Of a stretch of 64,000 nt of DNA, positions 7,641 to 56,583 are shown one piece after another. The stretch is from a virus, in IMG/VR virus record IMGVR_UViG_3300024262_000026, positions 1 through 64,000 of that record. One strand, 5' to 3'. Positions within the stretch are counted from its first letter, which is position 1. Every line of letters starts with the position of its first letter. A program made the position numbers and the translations under genes. Below the pieces are notes generated by a model. The model worked only from the letters and a program-made list of their open reading frames with translations, ran no database searches and was not told the DNA's origin.

Positions 7641-8285
7641 ATGGATTTATCTATGGACAAAAAATTGAATCAATTAGCGAAGGATTTTGAACATCGTACA
7701 AAATTAGACTTCCAAAAATTCTACAAGGACTATAAGCCAAAACTTATCTGGTATTTGGCGAGATACACTAAAGACACAGAAATTGCTGAAGATTATGCTG
7801 AAGAAGCATTTATTCAAGCAATGTTAAACATCAGCACTTATAAAAGACCTGAAGAAGGTGGGGCTCAAGTTAATACTTGGGTATATAAAATTGCGGAAAA
7901 CATTGTCAAAAAGGCTCATAAAGATAATGGAAAATTACCATCAACATCATTAGATAAGGAATTTGATGAAAATGTTAATTTAACTAATCTAATACCTTAT
8001 GATGATGGTAAGAGAGAAGAACACGAATATCATGTTTTTGTAAGAAAAGCCGAAATCATTAAAGATGCAATATACAGTTTACCTAAAAAAGATGATAAGT
8101 ATAAACAAGTACTCATAATGAGAGAATTAGAAGGTATGGCATATAAAGATATTTCAGAATATCTTGATATCAATTTATCAACTATCAAATCTCAAATCCG
8201 AAAAGGTAGAAGCATCATTCGCAAAAAAGTCATTAAGAAACTTCAAGAAATTGATAGTAATGGTTTAAGTGAATTTGATATATAG
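7641..8285 (+). CDS. ECF-type (RpoE-like) RNA polymerase sigma factor
   Basis: Region 2 (AEDYAEEAF, NTWVYKIAEN) and region 4 HTH (EGMAYKDISEYLDINLSTIKSQI). Confidence 0.9.
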   Translation: MDLSMDKKLNQLAKDFEHRTKLDFQKFYKDYKPKLIWYLARYTKDTEIAEDYAEEAFIQAMLNISTYKRPEEGGAQVNTWVYKIAENIVKKAHKDNGKLPSTSLDKEFDENVNLTNLIPYDDGKREEHEYHVFVRKAEIIKDAIYSLPKKDDKYKQVLIMRELEGMAYKDISEYLDINLSTIKSQIRKGRSIIRKKVIKKLQEIDSNGLSEFDI

Positions 8286-16146: not shown

Positions 16147-16177
16147 AAAAAAGAGGCTCAATTTTGAGCCTCTTTTT
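16147..16177. terminator. Bidirectional terminator
   Basis: aaaaagaggctca/tgagcctcttttt at a convergent junction. Confidence 0.8.
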
Positions 16178-16580
16178 CTATTTTATCAAGTTTGATTTTT
16201 CTATCCCGTTTTAATAGTTCCTTTGTTGTAAAACCCCAAGCAATACATCCAAACCGAACATCAGTATCAATATCAGATTTACCTTTTACTGCGGTATCAC
16301 CATCTATCGATGTAAGAGTTAAACCATCTTTACAGATATGATATGCCCATAATGGCATCACTATTAAATTTTCATCCCAAGACGAAAACCCAAGTTCGAA
16401 TAATTCATCCTTTGTAAACTTTGTAAAATCAATATCTTGATCTTCACAAAATTTGTCATATGCTTCACGAATTTGTTTAAGCTTAAAATCATCACCCCAA
16501 CCATCATATTCAAAAGCCTGAGCATTTGTCGAAATAATATAATTTTTATAACTGTTTATTTTCTGTACTTCTTCTCTCAC
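16158..16580 (-). CDS. Hypothetical phage protein with C-terminal RxxKLxxI tag
   Basis: Ends DRKIKLDKIEKEAQN. Confidence 0.75.
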   Translation of the reverse strand: MREEVQKINSYKNYIISTNAQAFEYDGWGDDFKLKQIREAYDKFCEDQDIDFTKFTKDELFELGFSSWDENLIVMPLWAYHICKDGLTLTSIDGDTAVKGKSDIDTDVRFGCIAWGFTTKELLKRDRKIKLDKIEKEAQN

Positions 16581-19077: not shown

Positions 19078-22000
19078 TTAATCACATCCTTGAAATCCAC
19101 AATCTTGACATTCTTTACAACCATTTTGCCAAATAATATTTGTGCTTCCACATTCAGGACAAATTGTACCTGTAGTTTCAACAGAATCTTTTATCCATTT
19201 TTTTAAAATTCGTTTTACACCTGCTTTCCAAGTTCCAAAATTGAGTTCTTCTTCACCATTAGTTGCCATATTCATACCATCAACAATATTTAATACACTA
19301 GGTAGATGTATTCTATGTCTCAAAAATGCAGACACCATTTTAGAATAATTCCAAAATTCACGATTAAATGCTCTATTTAATCCTTGCATTGTAACCTTAT
19401 ATCCATCTCTATCCGTATATTCAAAATCATATCTTTTATGAATAACACCGTCACTATCCTTTTCTTTAATTTTAATAATAGTTCCATGTTCCACATAAAT
19501 AGGAATTTGAAACGATTCAGCCAAACCTGTAAATAACTCATATGGATATTTTTCTTTTGATATCTCATCTATACCTAAAAATGCTACCCATTTTTCTTTA
19601 TTATTAGTGAACTTTATAATTTCACATTCTAATCTTTTAGGTCTACGCTTTGCATTATTTTCTTTCATTTGTTGCTCAATACTCTTTTCATCATGAGACA
19701 CAATAACACCTTGTCGTGAACCATCACGATAGACTGTTATACCTTTACAACCTGATTTCCAACCAGTTTCATACACTTTAGAAACCATTTCTTCAGTAAC
19801 ATCATTTGGTAAATTTACAGTAACAGAAATTGAATGATCAACATATTTCTGAACTTCGCCTTGCATACGAACTTTTTCAACCCAATCAACATCATTTGAT
19901 GTCGCTTTATAATAAGGAGATTTTTTAATAATTTCTTTTAATTCGTCTTCCTTCATCTTCTTAACTTCACCAATATTATAACCATTGATTTCTAACCATG
20001 TTTCAAATTTATGGTGAAATACATTATATTCTTCCCAATGAACACCTTTATCATCAATAAAATCACTTCTAGAATCTTTATCATTAGGATTAATTTTTCT
20101 TCTTCTTTTATAAGATACTAAATATACTGGTTCTATACCTGAGGTTGTTTGTGTACAAATTGAAACTGAGCCTGTTGGTGCAATAGTTAAAAGTGCAATA
20201 TTTCTTCTACCTTTCTTTAATTTTTCATTCAACTCAGGATCATCATTTTTCAAACGACTAATAAAAGGATTATTGATTTCTTTTTCATAATCATAAACAG
20301 GGAAAGAACCTCTTTCCTCTGCCATTATTGCAGAAGATTTATAAGCATTAATCGCAAGTATTTTATGAACTTTAGTTGAAAACTCGGTTGCTGGCTTAGT
20401 ACCATACCTCAAATTAAGAGCAGCAATCATATCACCTTCAGCAGTTACACCTAACCCTGTCCTTCTACCCTTTTCTGACATTTCTTTAATTTTCAACCAT
20501 AATTCAGTTTCAGTTCTTTTAATATGTGCGGGTTCTGGATCTGTTATAATTTTTTCTAAAATTTTATCAATTTTTTCAAGTTCTAAATCAATAATATCAT
20601 CCATAAATCTTTGAGCATATTGTACATGCTCTGAAAATAATTCAAAATCAAAATATGCATCTTTTGTAAAAGGATTAACAACATATGAATATAAGTTAAT
20701 TGCCAATAAACGACAAGAATCATAAGGACATAAAGTTATTTCACCACAATTTTTCACACAAATACCACCTGATGTAATATATTTATCATCTTCAAAATTA
20801 GTAATTATATTATAGTTATGATTATCATCAACTGTTATATTATACACATCCTCATAACCATAAAATTCAATTTTCATAACTTTATGATTATTCACAACCT
20901 GATTTTTAAAATCTGCAAAAGTTTTATCATTTGAATTATCAAAATCCTTATGATGTATTGCTACATTTTTATAATCTACAAACTCATCATAATAAAATTC
21001 ATGTATCAATCTATATTGCCTTCTATTTCTAAATCTACCACCCAACATTTTCTGACCAGTTTGTGCAATTTGCCTATATCCTTTATTTGAACTAAAAGAA
21101 TAAAATGATGATATAGAATCTCCTTCTATTAAATCTTTTAACTCTTTATAAGTATTATTCTTCATATAAATTCTATGATCTGGAGTTGCTATCAACTCAG
21201 AACCATCATCTAAAGTTAACTTCCATACTTCTACATTTTTCTTAGTTTTTCTAGGATTTCTACCCCATTTAATTTCAACTTTACCTTCATTATTAGTCGA
21301 ATATACAGGCACATCTTCACCTTCTAATGCCAACTGTTTTATACTAACAGCATTTCTACCATCAGCAACAGCAATCAAAGAATCACCAACAACACACGGA
21401 TTCGTACTAATTGTCTTAAAACCATACTCTTGGTAACAATCAGGCACAGATTCTCTCATAATAGTGTCCCAAAATAATATACCAGGTTCTGCTGATTTCC
21501 AAGCATTATGAACAATTTTATCCCATATAGGTTTAGCTTCAACATCTTTTGTAAATTTTGGATTTTTTGAATCTATTGGAAAACTTTGAGTATATTTTGT
21601 ATTTTTACTAACAGCTTTCATAAAATCATCATGAATTTTTATAGATACATTTGCACCAGTTATTTTACCCTCTTGCATTTTCGCATCAATAAATCCACCT
21701 GAATCTGGATGTTTAACACTTACTGTTAACATCAATGCGCCTCTACGTCCATCTTGTGCAACTTCTTCAGTAGTATTTGAAAATCTTTCCATAAAAGGCA
21801 CTATACCTGTAGATGTTAAGGCTGAATTTTTCACTCTCATTCCCTTTGGTCTGATATGTGATAAATCATGACCAACACCACCTCTACGTTTCATTAATTG
21901 TGCTTGTTCTTGATCTGTTAAAAATATACCACCATAAGAATCAGCATCATTACCAATTACAAAACAATTAGATAATGATACCGTTTGTCTATCATTACCT

Positions 22001-22290
22001 ATACCAGACATAGGCGAACCTTGTGGTACCATATATTTGAAATTTTTAATTAAGTCAAATATTTTTTCTTCACTCAACGGATTTGAATATTTCTTCTCTA
22101 TTCTATGCAACTCACGGGCAATCCTTTTATGCATATCATCAGGAGTTAATTCATAATATACAGTATTATCATCCACTCTACCATCTATTGTATCTTTTAA
22201 TGAGTACTTATTAATCCAAACATCAGTTGCTAATGTATCGCCTTTGAAATATTGTAAAGTAGCATTATATACATCTTCTCTTTTGTACAT
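19078..22290 (-). CDS. nrdJ: Class II (adenosylcobalamin-dependent) ribonucleotide reductase, intein-containing
   Basis: SLSNCF, RRGGVG, EPG, STNP|CGE, TIAPTGS, KGITVYRDGSR, C-terminal CPEC..CQDC; no beta subunit adjacent. Confidence 0.93.
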   Translation of the reverse strand: MYKREDVYNATLQYFKGDTLATDVWINKYSLKDTIDGRVDDNTVYYELTPDDMHKRIARELHRIEKKYSNPLSEEKIFDLIKNFKYMVPQGSPMSGIGNDRQTVSLSNCFVIGNDADSYGGIFLTDQEQAQLMKRRGGVGHDLSHIRPKGMRVKNSALTSTGIVPFMERFSNTTEEVAQDGRRGALMLTVSVKHPDSGGFIDAKMQEGKITGANVSIKIHDDFMKAVSKNTKYTQSFPIDSKNPKFTKDVEAKPIWDKIVHNAWKSAEPGILFWDTIMRESVPDCYQEYGFKTISTNPCVVGDSLIAVADGRNAVSIKQLALEGEDVPVYSTNNEGKVEIKWGRNPRKTKKNVEVWKLTLDDGSELIATPDHRIYMKNNTYKELKDLIEGDSISSFYSFSSNKGYRQIAQTGQKMLGGRFRNRRQYRLIHEFYYDEFVDYKNVAIHHKDFDNSNDKTFADFKNQVVNNHKVMKIEFYGYEDVYNITVDDNHNYNIITNFEDDKYITSGGICVKNCGEITLCPYDSCRLLAINLYSYVVNPFTKDAYFDFELFSEHVQYAQRFMDDIIDLELEKIDKILEKIITDPEPAHIKRTETELWLKIKEMSEKGRRTGLGVTAEGDMIAALNLRYGTKPATEFSTKVHKILAINAYKSSAIMAEERGSFPVYDYEKEINNPFISRLKNDDPELNEKLKKGRRNIALLTIAPTGSVSICTQTTSGIEPVYLVSYKRRRKINPNDKDSRSDFIDDKGVHWEEYNVFHHKFETWLEINGYNIGEVKKMKEDELKEIIKKSPYYKATSNDVDWVEKVRMQGEVQKYVDHSISVTVNLPNDVTEEMVSKVYETGWKSGCKGITVYRDGSRQGVIVSHDEKSIEQQMKENNAKRRPKRLECEIIKFTNNKEKWVAFLGIDEISKEKYPYELFTGLAESFQIPIYVEHGTIIKIKEKDSDGVIHKRYDFEYTDRDGYKVTMQGLNRAFNREFWNYSKMVSAFLRHRIHLPSVLNIVDGMNMATNGEEELNFGTWKAGVKRILKKWIKDSVETTGTICPECGSTNIIWQNGCKECQDCGFQGCD
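20749..21396 (-). mobile_element. Intein (216 aa) at the catalytic NP|CGE motif of RNR
   Basis: Starts CVVGDSLIAV, block B ATPDH, block F DVYNITVDDNHNY, ends VKN followed by Cys+1. Confidence 0.92.
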
Positions 22291-34121: not shown

Positions 34122-34550
34122 ATGTTAGAACATTTATATGATAAAAATGGGGATTTAAAACCTGAGATAAAAGAAAAAATAGAAATTTTTGCTGAAGAAT
34201 TCAGCGCAAAATTAGATATTGAATATAAAAGAGCACAAAAACTCAAACACTATTTAGATGAAAGAGATTTTGATGATTTTATAGGAAGAATAATTAGAGA
34301 GCATGGTGACAAATATTGTGATAAATGTTATAAAAAAGGTTATGAACCTTATCCTAATAATAAATTTAATTTATTATTAAAGTTAGTTGAAATTGAAGGA
34401 GAAGAAATAACAGACATTGATTTTAAGGATGATTGTGTTTTTCCAAATCAAATTATAAAATATAAAAATTATTATTTTCAATGGATTTGGGGGCAAGGCT
34501 GTATCATACTTATATATGATGAAAATCATGAAAGAATATTTTCAATATAA
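34122..34550 (+). CDS. Hypothetical protein
   Basis: 142 aa; CDKC; stop overlaps next start. Confidence 0.75.
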   Translation: MLEHLYDKNGDLKPEIKEKIEIFAEEFSAKLDIEYKRAQKLKHYLDERDFDDFIGRIIREHGDKYCDKCYKKGYEPYPNNKFNLLLKLVEIEGEEITDIDFKDDCVFPNQIIKYKNYYFQWIWGQGCIILIYDENHERIFSI

Positions 34551-35005
34551 TGGCAAGTTTACATAAACCAATATCACCATTTTTCCCAAATCCAATTTTA
34601 TTATTTGAACCTATCTATAACAATTTAGTTGATATTGACTTTGGTGAGAATGTTTTAAATGAAAATTGTTTTAAAATAAAAGGCAATATTGCACACATTC
34701 ACAACAATTATGATAATATAAGGAAAAAAAGTACATCACAAATAATAGAATCTTTGATTAATACTAATTTGCCAAAAGTTATATTTAATTATCACGATAA
34801 AAATGGTGAAGTATTAGAACAAATAATTGTTTGCAATTTCAAATTTATAAAAATCATAAATAAATTAGATTTTAATTGGAATGAGAATACACTAAAAAAA
34901 TTAAAAGTTCAATTTGAATATGATAAAACTTTTCATTCTGAAAAAGAATACAATTCATATATTCGAAAAGAAAAATTAAACAAAATAAATGGACGAAAAG
35001 ATTAA
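34550..35005 (+). CDS. Degenerate tail-tube paralogue with C-terminal RxxKLxxI tag
   Basis: FEPIYNNL, YHDKNGEVLEQIIVCN and LDFNWNENT align with the 664..1227 tube; ends IRKEKLNKIN. Confidence 0.65.
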   Translation: MASLHKPISPFFPNPILLFEPIYNNLVDIDFGENVLNENCFKIKGNIAHIHNNYDNIRKKSTSQIIESLINTNLPKVIFNYHDKNGEVLEQIIVCNFKFIKIINKLDFNWNENTLKKLKVQFEYDKTFHSEKEYNSYIRKEKLNKINGRKD

Positions 35006-36848: not shown

Positions 36849-37178
36849 ATGGTTAATATAACATTTGACGAATATGTAAATATGATGGAAGACGAATCTA
36901 AATGGCAAATAATAAAAGATTTTGTTAATGAAACAAAGTACTTTCGTTCCAGAGATATTCCACTTGGAAGTACTGGAAAAGTATATGTAAACTATTTACA
37001 CAAAGCTGGATTTTTAGGTAGACCTAAAAAAGGTATTTATTCATTAAACTTACATGTCGAAAATGATATAACATTATATAAAGTAACGGACTACGCTTAT
37101 GGTGACAATAAAGGAGTAATCAATAAAGTTGTTCGTAAAAACAAAATTATAAATTTAAATGAAATTTCAGAAGAATAA
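36849..37178 (+). CDS. Hypothetical protein with C-terminal tag variant
   Basis: Ends VRKNKIINLNE; ATG 36849 preferred over TTG 36840. Confidence 0.7.
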   Translation: MVNITFDEYVNMMEDESKWQIIKDFVNETKYFRSRDIPLGSTGKVYVNYLHKAGFLGRPKKGIYSLNLHVENDITLYKVTDYAYGDNKGVINKVVRKNKIINLNEISEE

Positions 37179-37476
37179 AGACGGTTACATAGAAGTTGAA
37201 TATGAAGGTTCTTATTATTTTCTAGATGGTAAAAAATGGGTAAGAGATTTTAAAATTGATAACTCAACATATTACAGCAATACTGGTCATAACACAACAA
37301 GAAAATTTATTATTCCAGTAGGACAACTATCTAGAAAACAGGCAGAAAAGCAAATAAAACAATTGATGGCACAATATACTGATAAAGAGGTATTTTACGA
37401 TGAAATTCAATCTAAATTGACACGATTATTAAGGAAAGCAAAATTAGATCAATTAAAAAATGTTGAAATTTTATGA
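37159..37476 (+). CDS. Small protein with portal-like segment and RxxKLxxL tag
   Basis: RKFIIPVGQLSRKQAEKQIKQLMAQY; ends LRKAKLDQLK. Confidence 0.65.
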   Translation: MKFQKNKDGYIEVEYEGSYYFLDGKKWVRDFKIDNSTYYSNTGHNTTRKFIIPVGQLSRKQAEKQIKQLMAQYTDKEVFYDEIQSKLTRLLRKAKLDQLKNVEIL

Positions 37477-40778: not shown

Positions 40779-41822
40779 ATGAAATGGACAAAAGAAGAAT
40801 GTACAAAAGAGGCACAAAAATATTTATATAAAAAAGATTTTAAAAAATATTCATCAGGCGCATATACATCATCAATTAAAAATAAATGGTTGGATGATAT
40901 AACTAAACATATGATATCTTTACGAAAAAGCAAAGATGAGTGGACATTAGAAGAATGTAGAGATATTGCAAAAAAATACAAAACAAGGACAGAATTTAAT
41001 AAAAAAAGTATATCAGCTTATAGAATATCATTATCTAATGATTGGATAGCTGATGTTTGTTCACATATGAATTGTTATGGTAATAGGTATTTGAGATGTA
41101 TATACTCATATGAATTTAGTGATAACTCAATATATATTGGGTTAACATATAATACGGATAATAGACATAAAAAACATATGTTTAAAGGAACAGTAAAAGA
41201 ACATATGATTAAAATTAACGAGAATCCAAAAATTAAAAAATTAACAGAATATCTACCAATAAATGAAGCAAAAAATGAAGAATATAAATATGTAGAATTT
41301 TATAAAAAAAATGGCTGGAAAATTTTGAACAAAATAAAAACAGGGGGAGTTGGAGGCACATCAATCATATGGAATTATGAAAATTGTAAAAAGGAATCAT
41401 TGAAATATAAAAGTAGAAGTGAATTTGCAAAAAATAACGGTAGCGCATACTATTCATCTATAAAAAACAAATGGCTAGATGATATATGTTCTCATATGAT
41501 ACTAAAAAAGAAACCTAATGGATATTGGAATTATGAAAATTGTAAAAAAGAAGCCTTAAGATATAAAACTAAAAAATTTTTTTATAAAAACTCAAAAGGT
41601 GCTTATAACTCAGCAAAAAGAAACAAATGGCTTAATAATATCTGTGAACATATGATAGGTAATAAAAACATAGGATATTGGAATTATGAAAATTGTAAAA
41701 AAGAAGCTTTAAAATATAAAACTAAAACAGAATTTAAAACTAAATGTGGTAGTGGCTATTTTTATAGCTATAAAAACAAATGGCTTAATGATATCTGTGA
41801 ACATATGACAAAAAGCGATTGA
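40779..41822 (+). CDS. GIY-YIG-like homing endonuclease with five ~50-aa repeats
   Basis: CIYSYEFSDNSIYIGLT..R..H; repeats WxxExCxxEAxKY...AY...KWLxxICxHM. Confidence 0.75.
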   Translation: MKWTKEECTKEAQKYLYKKDFKKYSSGAYTSSIKNKWLDDITKHMISLRKSKDEWTLEECRDIAKKYKTRTEFNKKSISAYRISLSNDWIADVCSHMNCYGNRYLRCIYSYEFSDNSIYIGLTYNTDNRHKKHMFKGTVKEHMIKINENPKIKKLTEYLPINEAKNEEYKYVEFYKKNGWKILNKIKTGGVGGTSIIWNYENCKKESLKYKSRSEFAKNNGSAYYSSIKNKWLDDICSHMILKKKPNGYWNYENCKKEALRYKTKKFFYKNSKGAYNSAKRNKWLNNICEHMIGNKNIGYWNYENCKKEALKYKTKTEFKTKCGSGYFYSYKNKWLNDICEHMTKSD

Positions 41823-42358: not shown

Positions 42359-42731
42359 ATGGATAATATGGTTTCCTAAAAAATGGGAGAGACATACACA
42401 TTCATCTCCTTCTGTGCTTTATGGATATTTAGATGGTGAAATATTTATATCAAATAAATATCTTTTCAATACTGACATTGAAAGTGAATCTAATGGTTTC
42501 ACACCTATTGATGAAAGATTTAAAGAAAAATATTATTATGAATTTTTTGATTCTAAAGATGATGTCGTTATATTGAGCAAAGAACTTCAAAGGGAAAAAT
42601 ATAAAATAAAACAAGAATTTCAAGATAAAATGGAAAACTTTTATTCTAAAACATCTTTAAAAAAGATGAAAAATAAAATTAGAGAAGCGAAATTAAAACA
42701 AATAAATGAGCAAATTTACGATAGGGGATAG
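42345..42731 (+). CDS. Hypothetical protein with RxxKLxxI tag
   Basis: IREAKLKQINE. Confidence 0.75.
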   Translation: MKQYKWIIWFPKKWERHTHSSPSVLYGYLDGEIFISNKYLFNTDIESESNGFTPIDERFKEKYYYEFFDSKDDVVILSKELQREKYKIKQEFQDKMENFYSKTSLKKMKNKIREAKLKQINEQIYDRG

Positions 42732-42975
42732 AGTTATTTATATTGGTTTCAATGATGATGGTTTAGATGGTCCAAATGCTTGGAAATTAGAAAGATTGCA
42801 AGAATATACTATCACAAATAAAGCATTTGAAACACATAAAGATACAGGTATGTTTTATGGTGTGAGAGATTATAAAGGTGTAGAAACTACTTGGTATAAA
42901 GAAAAGGATTTTATAAGTATTGTTGAAGCTAGAAAATTAAAATTAGATAAGATAAATGATAGATATAACATATAA
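42706..42975 (+). CDS. Hypothetical protein with RxxKLxxI tag
   Basis: MSKFTIGDRV...ARKLKLDKIND. Confidence 0.75.
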   Translation: MSKFTIGDRVIYIGFNDDGLDGPNAWKLERLQEYTITNKAFETHKDTGMFYGVRDYKGVETTWYKEKDFISIVEARKLKLDKINDRYNI

Positions 42976-43789
42976 TAGAACAGAAAACACAACTCGGGTA
43001 GAATTATCAACATTTAACATTTTTAATGAGGAACAATTACCTCTTGTAGTAAAATTTAAAAATTTTATTAACAATAAAATAGTTTGGACTCGAAAATTAG
43101 ATGAAGGTTGTTGGGTTGAATGGTCAGGTGGTGAAGTCATATACAATTTTACAATTGATACTGCTCAAGAACAACGAGTATTAGATTGGAAATATCAAGT
43201 TGAAAATAATGGCACACTTGTAGAAAAAACATTATATTATTTCATTAAAAATACCCCACATAGAACTAAAGGACTTATTGTTGGTTCACATAATGGATTA
43301 TGGGGTCAATGGATATTTCCAGTAATAGAAAATGCTTGTGATGTTGTAATGGTTGATGGTAGTTCACTTCAATTGGAAGAAGCCAAAATAAACTATTCTC
43401 ATCTAAATAATTGTAAATTTATAAATGAAATAGTTACACCTGATGGTAAAGATGTTACTTGGTTTCAAGGTAAAGAAGGGTGTACAGATACCGTGGATAA
43501 GAAAATTATTTCAAAATTTTTAAACGAAGATGAAATCATAAGTAGTTTTAGAACGACTATATCAATAAACAATATTTTTGAACAATACGGAAACTTTGAT
43601 TGGCTCTATTTAGATGCTGAAGGTATAGACTCAGATTTAATATTATCTCTTAATTATCATCCTGGTTTAATAATATATGAACCTGATCATATCTCTGATA
43701 AACAAAATATCAAATTGATGGAATGGTTTAAATTAAATGGGTATAAAGTATTTGAAGAATTAGATTGTATAGCAATAAAAGAAATATGA
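42956..43789 (+). CDS. FkbM-like SAM-dependent methyltransferase (divergent)
   Basis: LIVGSHNG, DWLYLDAEGID..I, IIYE. Confidence 0.65.
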   Translation: MIDITYNRTENTTRVELSTFNIFNEEQLPLVVKFKNFINNKIVWTRKLDEGCWVEWSGGEVIYNFTIDTAQEQRVLDWKYQVENNGTLVEKTLYYFIKNTPHRTKGLIVGSHNGLWGQWIFPVIENACDVVMVDGSSLQLEEAKINYSHLNNCKFINEIVTPDGKDVTWFQGKEGCTDTVDKKIISKFLNEDEIISSFRTTISINNIFEQYGNFDWLYLDAEGIDSDLILSLNYHPGLIIYEPDHISDKQNIKLMEWFKLNGYKVFEELDCIAIKEI

Positions 43790-44046
43790 GATACGAAAAA
43801 GAATATTTAGATAAAATTGGAATGAAAGTATCACACAAAATTGATGAAGATACAATGGCACCAATAGTAACATTTGAACTTAATGGTGTTGAATCTACAA
43901 TAAAAATGACAAGACTTGATATGGAAGATTTTAAAAGTGGTCCACCATATGATGATTTTATTGTTAAAAGAATTAACTCACATATAACAGAATTAATAAA
44001 AATTGTTAGGAAAAAGAAATTGGAAGATATAAATGAAATGGACTGA
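43786..44046 (+). CDS. Small protein with capsid-like segments and RxxKLxxI tag
   Basis: IDEDTMAP, MTRLDMEDFK, VRKKKLEDINE; ATG 43786 overlaps the upstream stop. Confidence 0.7.
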   Translation: MRYEKEYLDKIGMKVSHKIDEDTMAPIVTFELNGVESTIKMTRLDMEDFKSGPPYDDFIVKRINSHITELIKIVRKKKLEDINEMD

Positions 44047-44314
44047 AGAAAGAAGAAAAGCATACGGTATTGATTTAGATACTATGAGTGAAGCGACAAT
44101 GGCACCAAGATTAAGAATAACAATTAATGGATACTCAACCTTAATGTCATTAACTAGAGAATTTATAGAAGATTTAAAATGGCAAACACCGAATTCAGAA
44201 GTGTTTATTGATAGTATGATAGATGATGAAATTGAAAGACACCCTGAATTTAAAAGGATAGTCAGAAAAAAGAAATTGGAACAAATTGAACGATTGGACA
44301 GAACGGATAGATAA
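44033..44314 (+). CDS. Paralogue of upstream gene; capsid-like segments and RxxKLxxI tag
   Basis: MSEATMAP, LTREFIEDLK, VRKKKLEQIE. Confidence 0.7.
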   Translation: MKWTEERRKAYGIDLDTMSEATMAPRLRITINGYSTLMSLTREFIEDLKWQTPNSEVFIDSMIDDEIERHPEFKRIVRKKKLEQIERLDRTDR

Positions 44315-44588
44315 TATGTATTGGTGGGATGAATATAAAAAAGAAACTATTATAATCTCCAAAGAAGATGTTAATGAATCAGTAGGTAAAGGTATGCCTA
44401 CTAAGATCATAAAGAAAAACACAAAACTAAAAATTACAGATAGTTTCAAATTTATGATATTTGTAGAAGATGAAAATAGAAATTTGGGGGTAATTGATAC
44501 TAAAGATATAAATAGATTTTATAATACTAAAGAAAGTGCTAAAATTATTAGAAAAGAAAAATTAGATAAGATAAATGATAAAATATAA
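44286..44588 (+). CDS. Hypothetical protein with RxxKLxxI tag
   Basis: IRKEKLDKIND; true start may be ATG 44316. Confidence 0.7.
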   Translation: MNDWTERIDNMYWWDEYKKETIIISKEDVNESVGKGMPTKIIKKNTKLKITDSFKFMIFVEDENRNLGVIDTKDINRFYNTKESAKIIRKEKLDKINDKI

Positions 44589-45132
44589 TTTTGGAATAGA
44601 ATGTGAAATATCTTGGAATAAATTTCTCTGTGTTAATATGGGTGAAGAAAGACGATATAAACAAGAATTTGAAAATTTTAATGAATTTTTCTATTTTTTA
44701 GAACACAATAAACGAACTATAACAAAATTATTATTTGATGGGTATGAATATATTCTTCAAAATGGACTATTACATAATTTATACGGACCTGCAAAATTAA
44801 GACATAAAGAAAAAGAAGATGGAGATCCATTTTTCGGCACAACCAAATGGTTTTTTATCAATGGTAAATTGGTAACCGATAAATTAGAAAACTATAGGGG
44901 ATGTAAGAATTTAGAAGATTTTGAAAATAATGAAATTTTCTTTTACGAAGAAGTAACAGGTAAAAAATCTGGTAGAGATGAAAAGACTGGACAACTTTAT
45001 AGACGAAAAGAGGGTATTGATTATATAAAACATCCAATAAATTTAGAATCACTTAGACAAAAAGATATAAGAAAAAAGAAATTAGACCAAATAGATGAGC
45101 AAGATAATTATAATCAGCAATACCCAATTTAA
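44575..45132 (+). CDS. Hypothetical protein with RxxKLxxI tag
   Basis: GLLHNLYGPA..KWFFING; IRKKKLDQIDE. Confidence 0.75.
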   Translation: MIKYNFGIECEISWNKFLCVNMGEERRYKQEFENFNEFFYFLEHNKRTITKLLFDGYEYILQNGLLHNLYGPAKLRHKEKEDGDPFFGTTKWFFINGKLVTDKLENYRGCKNLEDFENNEIFFYEEVTGKKSGRDEKTGQLYRRKEGIDYIKHPINLESLRQKDIRKKKLDQIDEQDNYNQQYPI

Positions 45133-46063
45133 CATATCAAAAAACCTTACAACTAAAGAATGGTTGAAGAATATGGATTATTATTTCAACAACGAATTTA
45201 TACCTTATTTAAAGCAAAATAAGAGCGATAACGACATATTAGTACACTTAGGTAATCTACTATCAAATACCAAAAACATCAACTTAGAAGTCTTAAAATT
45301 CATTCAGGAGACATTTGAGAGTATAAGTTCAATACTACCAGTCTATATTTTAAACGGTGAAAATGATACACACACAAAAACCATCTTAAACAACATTAAA
45401 GATATTGAAATAATATCAGAACCTAAAGAAATTGAAATTTTATTAGACCAAAGATTCGCAATGTTACCAAGTAATAGTAAAGTAGAAGATATTGACAAAT
45501 TTGATTCTGATTATTGTTTTTTTCACTTTGATATTAATACACCTCAAAGAGATTCAATACTTAAAAAATTATCAAAATTTCAAAAATGTTATTGTGGTTA
45601 TTATGATAAAAATGGTGTTATGAAAAATATTAAATTTTTAGGTTCACCATACAACTTAGAAAAAGATGAAAAGAAAGGGTTTATTGTTCTAGAAACACAC
45701 ACTAATAAAGATAAATTTATTCTTAATAAAATAAGTCCATCATTTAAAAAAATTACAATAAATGATGATGAAGATTTTGAAATAGATAAATCCATATTTT
45801 TAAATAACTACGTGAGTCTCACATTAAATAAAAAACTTTTTGTTGATAATAAACTAAAAATAGAAATGTTATTATCAGAAAATGATTTTAAAAATGTTTC
45901 TTATACGGATGATGATATTAAAAGAGATAGAGATCTGATACAATTAGATGGCGAATCAGTTTCATTGAAAGAGATGATATCCGAATATATACAGAAATCA
46001 GAAATAGATAATAAAGATAGATTATTACAAGAATTTGAAAAAATAACAAAATTAAATGGATAA
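45095..46063 (+). CDS. Mre11/SbcD/gp47-like nuclease homologue with degenerate metal ligands
   Basis: Fold pattern retained (LVHLG, FLGSPY, KGFIVL, NKISPSF) but ligands read SNTQ, GNL, GEND, GYYD. Confidence 0.75.
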   Translation: MSKIIIISNTQFNISKNLTTKEWLKNMDYYFNNEFIPYLKQNKSDNDILVHLGNLLSNTKNINLEVLKFIQETFESISSILPVYILNGENDTHTKTILNNIKDIEIISEPKEIEILLDQRFAMLPSNSKVEDIDKFDSDYCFFHFDINTPQRDSILKKLSKFQKCYCGYYDKNGVMKNIKFLGSPYNLEKDEKKGFIVLETHTNKDKFILNKISPSFKKITINDDEDFEIDKSIFLNNYVSLTLNKKLFVDNKLKIEMLLSENDFKNVSYTDDDIKRDRDLIQLDGESVSLKEMISEYIQKSEIDNKDRLLQEFEKITKLNG

Positions 46064-46259
46064 TTATTACAAAGAATTATTAAAGAAACATTATGAATCA
46101 ATAAATGAAAAAGATATACAAGAGTATATGGATTTCTGTTTGGATTACGTTAAAGAAAACATCATAAATTGTTATAGTAATGAGAAATCAACAAAAAATG
46201 TTATTGAAGAATTATTTAAAAGAGGTATGGCTAAAAAATGGAAATTAAAACATGATTGA
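46056..46259 (+). CDS. Hypothetical protein
   Basis: 67 aa, overlapping both neighbours. Confidence 0.65.
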   Translation: MDNYYKELLKKHYESINEKDIQEYMDFCLDYVKENIINCYSNEKSTKNVIEELFKRGMAKKWKLKHD

Positions 46260-46518
46260 TTTAAAAGGTAAAGTAAATTTTAGGGATTTTACTACAGAAG
46301 ATTTATTGGAATTGGGAATACAAAGTATTTCTACAATATCTGAGGCTTCTTGGAAACCAAAAGTTATGTTTAAATTTTTGGACGGCAATGAAGAATCATT
46401 TAGTGTAAATAAAGATGAAAATATTGAAGATAAAATAAACAATAAAATAAACGAAATTGTTAGAAAGAAAATAGTAGAACAACGAAAAGAAAAACTAAAC
46501 CAATTAAAATGTTATTAG
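46252..46518 (+). CDS. Small protein with capsid-like segment and RxxKLxxL tag
   Basis: QSISTISEASWKPKVMFK; QRKEKLNQLK. Confidence 0.7.
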   Translation: MIDLKGKVNFRDFTTEDLLELGIQSISTISEASWKPKVMFKFLDGNEESFSVNKDENIEDKINNKINEIVRKKIVEQRKEKLNQLKCY

Positions 46519-51389: not shown

Positions 51390-52076
51390 ATGACAATCAA
51401 GAAATTTAATGAATATATTAATGAGAATAATAACACAAATTACTATCAAATAATTGATTATACTAATTTAGATACTCTCTCAAATGATGATATTAAAAAA
51501 ATGTGTTCTGTTGCTGAAGAAAAAAAAGTATATTCTGTTTGTGTATTACCAGAATATGTTAGTCTTGTATCATCATTTCTTGAAAATTATGATATTAAAG
51601 TTGTTGCTACAATAGACTTTCCAAAAGGTAGTAGTTCATCCACAGAAAAGATAAAAGAAATTGATAAAGCACTTGTGAATGGTGCAGATGAAGTTGATGT
51701 TGTATTAAATTATAAACTTATAAAAGAAAAGGAATTTGAAACTATTGAAGATGAAATTAGAAGTATTTCAGAATATGTACATAAAGAAGGAAAAATTGTT
51801 AAAATTATCATTGAAATAGGTGCATTAAGTTTTCAAGAAATAGAACAAGTTAGTGAAATATGTGTTGATGCTAATGTTGATTTTATAATGACATCCACAG
51901 GAAAATTACCAAATGATGGTGACTTTGATGATAAAGTTAAAAAAGTTAAATTTATAAGAAAAATTACTCCTGACGACACTAAGATAAAATTTAGTGGAGG
52001 AATAAGAACTAACGCACAAATTGCACAAGTTGCACAATATTGTGATAGAATAGGAACAAGTATTATACCCGTCTAA
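51390..52076 (+). CDS. deoC: Deoxyribose-phosphate aldolase homologue (Schiff-base Lys replaced by Met)
   Basis: IDYTNL, DFPKG, GADEVDVV, KIIIE, DFIMTSTG, KFSGGIR, RIGTS. Confidence 0.85.
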   Translation: MTIKKFNEYINENNNTNYYQIIDYTNLDTLSNDDIKKMCSVAEEKKVYSVCVLPEYVSLVSSFLENYDIKVVATIDFPKGSSSSTEKIKEIDKALVNGADEVDVVLNYKLIKEKEFETIEDEIRSISEYVHKEGKIVKIIIEIGALSFQEIEQVSEICVDANVDFIMTSTGKLPNDGDFDDKVKKVKFIRKITPDDTKIKFSGGIRTNAQIAQVAQYCDRIGTSIIPV

Positions 52077-55416: not shown

Positions 55417-56281
55417 ATTTATTCAAAAATCTAACGAATTATTTAAATATAAATATGATTATTCACTAGTTGAATATAAAAATAATAAAATAAAAGTTAA
55501 AATAATTTGTCCAATACATGGTATATTTGAAAAATCACCAAATAAACACTTATTAGGTCAAGGTTGCCAAAAATGTGCATTAGAAAATTCATCAAAAAAA
55601 CAAAGATCAAATAATAAAGAATTTATTAAAAAATCACTAAATATACACAACAATAAATATAACTACTCACTAGTTAATTATAAAAACAGTAAAACAAAAG
55701 TTAAAATAATTTGTCCAGAACATGGTATATTTGAACAAACACCAACAAAACATTTAAAAGGTTGTGGTTGTCCTAATTGTGCTAACAACGTAAAATTGTC
55801 TAATAGTGAATTTATAAAAAGATCAAATAAAATACATAATGGTAAATATGATTATTCATTAGTTCAATATGAAAATAATAGAACAAAAGTTAAAATAATT
55901 TGTCCAGAGCATGGAACATTTAAGCAAATACCAACAAACCATTTAAGAGGTAAAGGTTGTAATAAATGTAAAATAAATTCTATAGGAGAAGAAACTATAA
56001 AAAATATATTAAAAGATAAAAATATAAATTTCATACATCAAAAAACTTTTGACGATTGTAAAAATAAATTGAAATTACCATTTGATTTTTATATTTATGA
56101 TTTAAATATGTGTATAGAATATGATGGTAGGCAACATTTTAACATAAACACTAAATTTTATTCAGAAGATATTAAAATTAATGATAATATTAAAAATAAA
56201 TATTGTAAATTAAACAATATTAAATTATTAAGAATAAAATTTGATGAAAATATTAAAGAAAAACTAATACAACATTTATGA
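55400..56281 (+). CDS. Putative homing endonuclease (DUF723-like zinc repeats + PD-(D/E)xK/Vsr-like domain)
   Basis: Three YDYSLVxY..KVKIICPxHG..HL.G.GCxxC repeats; LPFDFY..CIEYDGRQH. Confidence 0.8.
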   Translation: MKNINRFIQKSNELFKYKYDYSLVEYKNNKIKVKIICPIHGIFEKSPNKHLLGQGCQKCALENSSKKQRSNNKEFIKKSLNIHNNKYNYSLVNYKNSKTKVKIICPEHGIFEQTPTKHLKGCGCPNCANNVKLSNSEFIKRSNKIHNGKYDYSLVQYENNRTKVKIICPEHGTFKQIPTNHLRGKGCNKCKINSIGEETIKNILKDKNINFIHQKTFDDCKNKLKLPFDFYIYDLNMCIEYDGRQHFNINTKFYSEDIKINDNIKNKYCKLNNIKLLRIKFDENIKEKLIQHL

Positions 56282-56583
56282 TAAAAAATTTTAAATTATT
56301 TATAGAAGATGCCACAGCAACAATGGGCAATATGAACGGAATGGGTAACGTCACTTCTGCAATTCCAAGTGAAACTCCAGGTTCAGTTTCAGATTCTATA
56401 CCAGGTTCTGGTGATATTGGACAAATATTAGGAACACACACCAAAAAATCAACTTTAGATTTAAGAAAGAAAAAGAAAAAGAAAAAAGATTTAAAGAAAA
56501 AAGAAAACTTTTCTCACGAACAAGATAAAACATATGACCAAATGTATGTGGTTAGATTTGGTGACTATAAATATACTAAATAA
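56278..56583 (+). CDS. Small disordered protein with capsid-targeting-like N-terminus
   Basis: MIKNFKLFIE; poly-Lys tract. Confidence 0.7.
   Translation: MIKNFKLFIEDATATMGNMNGMGNVTSAIPSETPGSVSDSIPGSGDIGQILGTHTKKSTLDLRKKKKKKKDLKKKENFSHEQDKTYDQMYVVRFGDYKYTK

Follow-up and report, generated by a model that had tools for sequence, protein, structure and literature searches.

What is a large phage doing with short genes that carry peptides reminiscent of a major capsid protein (MCP)? This question is raised by three open reading frames (ORFs) of 86-93 residues, ORF1, ORF2 and ORF3, that lie between positions 43,786 and 46,518 of the IMG/VR virus record IMGVR_UViG_3300024262_000026. The DNA that we analyzed, hereafter the window, is the first 64 kb of this 73-kb record, for which CheckV gives a completeness of 10%. 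A sequence-only reading of the window had noted the peptides IDEDTMAPIV (43840), TMSEATMAPRL (44081) and QSISTISEASWKPKV (46321), and these do lie at those positions in real ORFs (ORF1, ORF2 and ORF3, respectively). It had further seen in them a likeness to gp23-family MCP segments in permuted order, and had proposed that the array of tagged ORFs, with mimics of tail tube and portal, samples virion epitopes sensed by host immunity. We found that the core of these proteins consists of two rearranged pieces of the gp23-type MCP of this phage group, from which it very probably derives. The features of the three ORFs are as follows, segment A and segment B denoting the two pieces and the tag a short C-terminal peptide that they share with other ORFs.

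43786-44046, + strand: ORF1, 86 residues, family member identical to representative P0003; its own ATG overlaps the stop of an upstream 277-residue ORF.
43825-43878, + strand: segment A of ORF1, KVSHKIDEDTMAPIVTFE, counterpart of the MCP P-loop hairpin (family alignment and column counts).
43882-43947, + strand: segment B of ORF1, NGVESTIKMTRLDMEDFKSGPP, counterpart of the MCP strand and short acidic helix (family alignment, hhalign and column counts).
44008-44034, + strand: C-terminal tag of ORF1, RKKKLEDIN, containing the ATG of ORF2 (44033).
44033-44314, + strand: ORF2, 93 residues, family member and top row of the family alignments.
44069-44122, + strand: segment A of ORF2, IDLDTMSEATMAPRLRIT, paired with MCP 525-542, QSISVISEATFAPRMLLR.
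44126-44191, + strand: segment B of ORF2, NGYSTLMSLTREFIEDLKWQTP, paired with MCP 323-344, GTIEVTSALRRSEIEDIKANTG.
44264-44290, + strand: tag of ORF2, RKKKLEQIE; the TTG of the next ORF lies at 44286, where other tags have ATG.
46252-46518, + strand: ORF3, 88 residues, a more distant member with a clear segment A and a shortened, degenerate segment B.
46321-46374, + strand: segment A of ORF3, QSISTISEASWKPKVMFK, 56% identical over 18 residues to sister-clade MCPs (blastp), with a profile match to MCP 522-542.
46483-46509, + strand: tag of ORF3, RKEKLNQLK, at the end of which the next ORF begins (ATG at 46509).

The motifs that had drawn attention to these ORFs are specific to them. We counted pattern matches in the 490 ORFs of at least 30 residues (41,979 residues) of the 73-kb record and, for comparison, in the 4158 ORFs (351,188 residues) of a 642-kb relative. 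The motif E-x-[TS]-[MW]-x-P, described by the sequence-only reading as common to the three ORFs, had three matches in the record, exactly ORF1-3, and one match in the relative. The second motif, TR-x-x-[MI]-ED-[FL]-K, held to be common to ORF1 (TRLDMEDFK) and ORF2 (TREFIEDLK), where it lies 19-21 residues downstream of the first peptides, had two matches in the record versus none in the relative. By these counts both motifs are far rarer than expected by chance. The adjacent ORF1 and ORF2 are paralogues, as had been proposed (34% identity, E = 3e-11), and ORF3 is a more distant one (E = 0.011 against ORF2).

A word-based search returned the query ORF itself and one 67%-identical protein, while a four-sequence profile searched against 1.84 billion representatives retrieved 26 relatives of 58-119 residues (E ≤ 1e-3). 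The two motifs form the best-conserved columns, and thus the family signature, of the resulting 27-row alignment, and the reading frame is intact in 27/27 aligned members. The common architecture is segment A (S-E-A-T-aromatic/M-x-P-K/R plus a strand), a D/N-G turn, and segment B ([ST]-R-x-x-I-E-D-L-K); ORF1 and ORF2 have both segments, and ORF3 has segment A with a shortened segment B. Pfam (E ≤ 0.01), PHROGs and PADLOC assigned no family to ORF1, ORF2 or ORF3. We dropped a phmmer match of ORF2 to a 186-residue ORF of the relative, which was a low-complexity coiled-coil, and we set aside as non-significant the only matches of the PDB sequence search, fatty-acid-binding proteins (E = 0.54), whose lipocalin-like fold is not among the fold-search matches listed. 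Judged by these alignments, ORF1-3 are paralogues in a rare, conserved family of phage proteins of about 90 residues.

The family profile leads directly to the MCP. Searched against the whole 642-kb relative it gave three matches, two of them in one 571-residue ORF, and against a second relative four matches, two of them in one 560-residue ORF, its MCP. The 571-residue ORF is likewise a gp23-type MCP, and the 120 homologues listed for it carry PF07068. Family positions 15-32 align with MCP 525-542 and positions 37-75 with MCP 325-364 (IEVTSALRRSEIEDIKANTG...), the order being swapped: the C-terminal segment of the MCP precedes the mid-protein segment in the small proteins, which upholds the permuted order seen by the sequence-only reading. 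The full-sequence E value against the MCP was 7e-9 in a single comparison (Z=1), and hhalign of the family against the MCP alignment gave a probability of 92.7% and E = 4.4e-7 for segment A and a probability of 43% and E = 2.5e-4 for segment B, the pairings being those listed for ORF2. Among 41 IMG/VR loci (2773 ORFs), the profile matched 24 full-length MCPs (E = 6e-8 to 2e-6), always via both segments.

In the MCPs the two segments are a P-loop hairpin near the C-terminus (consensus SISxISEATFAPRMLLR) and a mid-protein strand with a short acidic helix (SALRRtEIEDIKA). The sequence-only reading had staked its proposal beforehand on the motifs being found in related MCPs; both segments are present, and they are invariant or nearly so in 120/120 MCPs examined. 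The best-conserved columns of the small family all carry the MCP residue (P in 25/26, E in 21/25 and D in 20/23), and the pattern SE[AG][TS][MWF]xP[KR] has the MCP as its sole match among the 4158 ORFs of the 642-kb relative. Reciprocally, an MCP profile searched against 448 small ORFs ranked ORF3 second (E = 0.011), ORF1 third (E = 0.12, profile positions 319-389) and ORF2 fifth (E = 2.1). With a second MCP profile ORF3 reached E = 0.0012, both of its profile matches falling at the C-terminal hairpin positions of the MCP, and ORF1 matched an MCP by blastp with 29% identity over 83 residues (E = 6e-4 in a small database of about 46 MCPs).

The resemblance to gp23-family segments, one near the C-terminus and one mid-protein, is therefore borne out by the profile and hhalign matches to PF07068 MCPs of related phages. 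The capsid strings cited by the sequence-only reading are not exact: they do not occur in T4 gp23 or gp24, where every motif pattern had zero matches. An hhalign comparison of the four-sequence family alignment with T4 gp23 likewise gave a probability of 0.1%. We accordingly rejected T4 gp23 itself as the source of the motifs, which instead connect the family to MCPs from a clade of large uncultured phages. The core is a hairpin, a D/N-G turn, and then a strand, an acidic helix and the start of the spine helix.

The related MCPs align with T4 gp23 (hhalign, 81.7%, E = 1.1e-5), so that the two pieces can be placed in the T4 capsid. Through the MCP alignment, segment A corresponds to gp23 residues 457-474 and segment B to residues 262-283; the C-terminal segment of the MCP as a whole aligns with 457-479, and the mid-protein IEDIKANTGMD with 275-285. 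According to passages of Fang et al. 2022 (PMC9546572), T4 capsomers meet near quasi-threefold axes via P loops and via a short acidic P-domain helix that faces basic P-domain strands. These passages also locate mutations that affect head length: A268V, A275T, D285V and D287V/N map next to the helix, and the P loop harbours T457A, R460C and G461S. Because the alignment puts both segments at these mapped contacts, the small proteins join precisely two capsomer-edge elements, the counterparts of the T4 quasi-threefold contacts. The AlphaFold2 model of ORF2 (predicted local distance difference test score, pLDDT, 77) comprises strand 13-17, a loop, strand 26-31, the NG turn, strand 34-39 and helices 42-51, 55-69 and 71-92, and this strand-loop-strand-turn-strand-helix order matches that of the MCP P-domain elements. 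The model of a related MCP was poor (pLDDT 51) and was not used for the C-terminal segment.

ORF1-3 are nevertheless not capsid proteins: they have 86-93 residues versus 552-615 in the related MCPs, and show two short local MCP-profile matches and no Pfam match to PF07068. What they share with gp23-type MCPs is that both family blocks align to the P-loop hairpin and to the strand, acidic helix and spine-helix start, in the same predicted order of elements. They differ in length (about 90 versus about 570 residues), in that the blocks are swapped and joined by a two-residue turn, and in that the A domain, insertion domain, N-arm and E-loop are missing.

The three ORFs are not the only ones in the window that carry pieces of virion proteins, and the portal and tube mimics claimed by the sequence-only reading proved to be real.

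37159-37476, + strand: portal-piece ORF, tagged, 105 residues; a 70-residue segment matches positions 240-309 of 571 of a portal profile built from 23 sequences (E = 2.8e-9).
34550-35005, + strand: tube-piece ORF, tagged, 151 residues; its residues 74-122 are similar to the C-terminal part of the phage's own tail tube (residues 128-177; E = 6.8e-4, single-sequence profile over 490 ORFs).
664-1227, - strand: own tail tube (phrog_45, E = 1e-9).
56278-56583, + strand: 101-residue ORF without the RK tag, matching MCP profiles (E = 4e-7 and 6e-7).

The portal piece also had weak matches to Pfam Portal_T4 and phrog_213, and a phmmer match (E = 0.0019) to a portal-like ORF of the relative. The ORF at 56278-56583 begins with M-I-K-N-F-K-L-F-I-E-D, similar to a T4-type capsid-targeting N-terminus, continues with MCP residues ~44-93, which are the stretch directly after the likely propeptide cut, and then has a poly-Lys run. 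The N-termini of ORF1-3 do not fit the capsid-targeting pattern, which matches 3/490 ORFs of the record and 9/4158 of the relative. N-termini of the form M-x-I-K-K-F-x-E-Y-I-N-E, recalling the T4 capsid-targeting sequence with its L/I-X-E, were seen at 51390-52076 (+), at 71065-71520 (-) of the record, and in nine ORFs of the 642-kb relative; one such N-terminus sits on a DeoC-like aldolase, which hints by its sequence at a head-packaged enzyme.

Sister-phage loci, reached via family member P0009, display the same phenomenon on a larger scale. In the rows L048:3648-6826 (+), L049:9239-10965 (+) and L050:10001-10957 (+), consecutive ORFs all end in K-R-[IV]-Y-S-D-x-D-P-Y-G-E-E-x-W-E, and their cores correspond to different parts of the MCP, namely the N-terminus, the N-arm region, an insertion-domain piece, the spine helix, an A-domain piece and the C-terminus (blastp against MCPs, E = 1e-23 to 1e-5). 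In one 16.7-kb record, six pieces (MCP 3-39, 86-143, 136-306, 308-377, 509-558 and 528-545) cover most of the MCP, and the last ORF of the row, L048:6413-6826 (+), is a tagged C-terminal domain of the tail sheath (Phage_sheath_1C, E = 3.6e-10, 40.3 bits versus a cut-off of 26.9). A 130-kb record that is rated 100% complete holds an intact MCP together with two MCP fragments; among its 208 candidate genes, called by a simple greedy ORF selection, there are 30 DPYGEE-type motifs (15 C-terminal) and 21 EE[ND]IEW tags (19 C-terminal). By blastp the sister fragments resemble the MCP encoded in the same genome no more than they do the clade's other MCPs, and they are therefore old, maintained genes. 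Three small proteins of this lineage begin with M[PG]LAHF, which is the tail-tube N-terminus (MPLPHFT in the relative and MPLAHFT in this phage): the family members P0009 and P0018, and the neighbouring L048:5297-5593, a weak relative (E = 0.0019). The MCP-derived family is thus one case of a wider habit, in which tagged small ORFs of this window and of sister phages contain parts of the MCP, the portal, the tail tube and the sheath.

The tags themselves are of three kinds (RK, DPYGEE-type and EE[ND]IEW). The RK tag, R-K-x-K-L-x-x-I-N, is shared by 12 ORFs of the window, ORF1-3 included. A six-frame scan of the window gave 13 matches, 12 of which lie 2-11 residues before a stop codon, and a stricter pattern gave 11 matches in 64 kb versus none in the 642-kb relative. 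Among the 27 aligned family members, 24 end in the RK tag and two in K-R-V-Y-S-D-x-D-P-Y-G-E-E-x-W-E, and one ends early. The ATG of the following ORF lies at the same spot inside the tag in 9/12 cases and a TTG lies there in one more, and in the sister tag the W-E-E codons supply GGAGG, then ATG, for the next ORF. A signal for gene junctions would be one explanation, and a further tagged ORF bears on it.

16158-16580, - strand: tagged conserved 140-residue protein (phrog_6726), with a homologue in the relative (E = 1e-26).

Here a hairpin and a T-run follow the tag in place of a coupled gene, and the homologue in the relative lacks the tag, which was thus acquired solely in the lineage of this phage. 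Because of this case, and because the tag varies at synonymous sites (Arg as AGA, AGG or CGA; Leu as TTA, TTG, CTT or CTA), the RK tag is not merely a gene-junction signal. Such shared tags point to a common partner or processing step.

Several further observations concern the tags and their cargo. The third tag, ...Y-K-E-E-[ND]-I-E-W-[LVMF], ends about 20 small ORFs in rows at L050:317-7100 (+) (G002), and the ATG of the following ORF overlaps its E-W-L codons. One 673-residue ORF of the sister phages has six tags, being fused with internal ones; L052:4306-6324 (+), with an identical ORF in L053, and several G002 ORFs of 281-835 residues contain 3-6 internal DPYGEE motifs spaced ~80-115 residues apart. 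From their sequence, such long ORFs could be polyproteins or fused cassettes. The phiKZ-type head-protease site is S/A-X-E, and as the passage of PMC9026906 on this site names S or A, Gly would have to be allowed for the G-E-E of the tag to fit. In the window, the RK-tagged ORFs at 42706-42975 (+) and 44575-45132 (+) look by eye like small-domain cargo that bears the DPYGEE tag in sister phages (an SH3-like start F-x-I-G-D-x-V and MORN-like W-F-x-N-G-K-L repeats), so lineages may use different tags for the same type of cargo.

With respect to its setting, the window has a G+C content of ~27% and encodes tail sheath, tail tube, baseplate parts, an intein-bearing ribonucleotide reductase, a DnaB-like helicase, a RecA/UvsX-like protein, a sigma factor and many small ORFs. 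The closest named records of its SbcD-like protein are uncultured phages of 460-640 kb and Lak phages (28% identity), which marks the record, by sequence, as a fragment of a large T4-superfamily-like phage. Pfam found no PF07068 match in the 73-kb record, and the phage's own MCP gene lies outside it; scans of viral contigs that used ORF2, P0008 and the SbcD-like protein as queries detected no close relative. The array ORFs stand in rows of small ORFs that adjoin DNA methylases and the SbcD-like gene, and ORF1-3 are surrounded by early-type DNA-metabolism genes; the genes are patchy and fast-evolving. A promoter and terminator scan of 33-48 kb gave 129 promoter-like sites versus 125 expected and was thus uninformative. 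Neither of the two sequencing runs that contain the stretch is listed as RNA. The large subunit of the ribonucleotide reductase (19078-22290, -) is split by the intein (Pfam Intein_splicing, E = 4e-13). A 347-residue protein with repeated K-N-K-W-L-D-D-I-C-x-H-M (40779-41822, +; phrog_20046, four stretches, E = 1.5e-67) heads the small-ORF row. Directly upstream of ORF3, a 67-residue ORF (46056-46259, +) shows similarity to region 4 (residues 152-191; E = 0.002) of the sigma factor that the phage itself encodes at 7641-8285, and may be a stand-alone fragment of that region; if so, the habit of carrying fragments extends beyond virion proteins. At the left end of the record, a metagenome scan found two short alternative contigs, L089 and L090 (1298 and 1301 bp), that both continue leftwards by ~1.2 kb from the first bases of the window (positions 1-35); the end is probably an assembly branch point between variants.

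We next considered what such proteins might do. The derivation from virion proteins is well supported and the function is not; of the functions considered, we tentatively favour one in which the mini-proteins mimic the capsomer edge and act on MCP or proheads during head assembly, a reading which we regard as possible at somewhat less than even chances. The mini-proteins would fold as free-standing copies of the capsomer edge and would occupy whatever binds that surface. The likeliest partner would be unassembled MCP or the prohead, where contacts between capsomers would be capped or modulated, and the tag would serve as a common handle, perhaps as a C-terminal signal for prohead targeting or processing. 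A link to the prohead is suggested because the ORF at 56278-56583 joins a targeting-like N-terminus to an MCP piece, and because 5/12 RK tags end in I-N-E or I-D-E, fitting the T4 protease site L/I-X-E and resembling the Q-I-N-E, followed by N, at the likely propeptide junction of the MCP. Targeting-like N-termini and DPYGEE tags also occur on the same proteins. C-terminal propeptides exist in T4 Alt and gp21 according to the relevant passages of PMC9026906, which is a further reason for considering the prohead.

Known systems offer partial parallels. In T4 the internal proteins IPI-III are packaged into the prohead by means of a terminal peptide whose last residues form the protease site L/I-X-E (passages of PMC9026906). 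The arrays resemble them as rows of small, fast-diverging ORFs at variable loci that share one short terminal peptide, in the I-N-E/I-D-E endings of the 5/12 tags, and in the T4-like targeting N-termini of this phage group. They differ in that the tag is C-terminal rather than N-terminal, packaging and cleavage here being putative by analogy, and in their cargo, which is made up of parts of virion proteins that the phage itself encodes; T4 internal proteins are not known to have such cargo. T4 Soc is also a small protein (80-90 residues) of the kind expected at contacts between capsomers (quasi-threefold junctions), but we found no relation in sequence or fold (Soc is not among the fold-search matches listed), and Soc is not known to derive from an MCP. 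Capsid-derived interference is represented by Fv1 and enJS56A1 of mammals, coat-protein-mediated resistance in plants and the capsid-remodelling proteins of satellites; there, too, a partial or complete copy of a structural protein disturbs or reroutes the assembly of the full-length one, but these are encoded by host or satellite rather than by the virus itself, and none is a tagged fragment array. T4 Gol, an experimental fragment of gp23 that activates the Lit protease and triggers defence, is similar as a short MCP segment acting as a stand-alone ligand, and the sister rows include a segment that aligns by eye to the Gol region. The fragments here are, in contrast, natural genes, and the three ORFs of the window carry other MCP segments.

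Several points weigh against a role in assembly through mimicry of the phage's own capsid. Taken singly, ORF1 and ORF2 match the MCP profiles weakly (E = 0.12 and 2.1), and it is the family profile that carries the argument. That self is what they mimic is an extrapolation from the MCPs of relatives, because the own MCP lies outside the 73-kb record and the SbcD-like protein is just 28% identical to the closest named relative. The protease motif fits just 5/12 tags. The 642-kb relative has neither the family nor the tag, and presumably builds capsids without them. An early-type neighbourhood, patchiness and fast evolution form a pattern that characterizes arms-race genes more than assembly factors. 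A monomeric mimic may also bind poorly, since a single capsomer-edge contact is weak. Finally, structure prediction, a check named in the sequence-only reading, spoke for the capsid link in the order of elements of the ORF2 model and not in the fold searches: Foldseek (best E = 0.44 in PDB and 0.17 in BFVD) returned no capsid protein, VIA-align over 48,161 chains (best Z = 5.0) had none among the 50 matches listed, and an ESM Atlas search (scores ≤0.86) gave nothing usable. A sub-domain as small as the one modelled may escape such searches.

The early-type neighbourhood and the patchiness fit the first alternative, that the tagged pieces are immune decoys, which bind host sensors without triggering them or drag the sensors to a partner recruited by the tag. 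We consider this doubtful, though a real possibility. Conserved virion proteins such as MCP, portal, tube and sheath are the classes that trigger bacterial defences, and all four were confirmed as sources of fragments. The genes are accessory, the 642-kb relative having none of them, the rows adjoin DNA methylases and the SbcD-like gene in a region of early character, and the family diverges much faster (25-40% identity within the family) than the MCP (75-100% among the 120 nearest MCPs) while keeping MCP-identical residues at its best-conserved columns, as a decoy would need. The linear tiling of the whole MCP, buried parts included, would suit sensors of unfolded or peptide epitopes. On the other hand, PADLOC had no match for the three ORFs and for 8/9 other array ORFs (an AAA ATPase alone was matched, weakly), and a sensor can be switched on rather than blocked when MCP fragments are expressed, as with T4 Gol and Lit. 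Full-text literature searches, in the portions of text they returned, gave no phage decoy built from fragments of its own virion proteins. A more elaborate version, in which a library of tagged self-mimics saturates, misleads or, via the tag, destroys host sensors, with ORF1-3 as capsomer-edge baits, seems to us unlikely; if true, it would be a bait-and-handle form of counter-defence without described precedent. The immune-epitope idea accounts for the data no better than a role in assembly or in the prohead.

The start codons within the tags suggest another explanation, that repeats of the tag promote recombination and shuffle bits of phage genes, the MCP-like ORFs being by-products with little or no function. 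In its favour are the ATG or TTG inside the RK tags and the GGAGG and ATG of the sister tags; the pieces are also non-collinear, some ORFs are fused with internal tags (the 673-residue ORF with six), and the mosaics reuse the tube N-terminus M[PG]LAHF. Against this, the permuted family is conserved across lineages with different tags, its conservation is focused on MCP-identical residues, the frames are intact in 27/27 members, and the sister fragments are old, showing no special closeness to the MCP of the same genome. The tag appended to the protein at 16158-16580, before a hairpin and not before a coupled gene, points to selection at the peptide level. We therefore hold the debris explanation to be improbable. 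Convergence of an unrelated small fold, e.g. a regulator, on MCP-like motifs is highly improbable, since, short as the matches are (18 and 22 columns), without a fold match to capsid proteins among the matches listed and with a similar G-[IV]...KP-strand pattern in the non-significant fatty-acid-binding protein match (E = 0.5), two independent segments match the same protein in every genome tested, hhalign (E = 4.4e-7) and the reciprocal ranking agree, and the sister rows hold long, unambiguous MCP fragments (E down to 1e-23) beside family members. Both of these last explanations are less likely than a role in assembly or as decoys.

No virus seems to have been described that has, beside the intact genes, numerous small tagged copies of parts of its capsid, portal, tube and sheath proteins; full-text literature searches on the DPYGEE motif, on anti-defence through decoys or mimics of the capsid, and on fragments of capsid proteins in huge phages gave, in the portions of text they returned, no description of such arrays. 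If the mini-proteins are decoys, they would mark the parts of virion proteins that are read by bacterial immunity and would represent a new principle of counter-defence. If instead they act in assembly, as we tentatively favour, they would be natural probes of the capsomer-edge contacts that set the size of T4-type heads, and a new class of assembly modulator.

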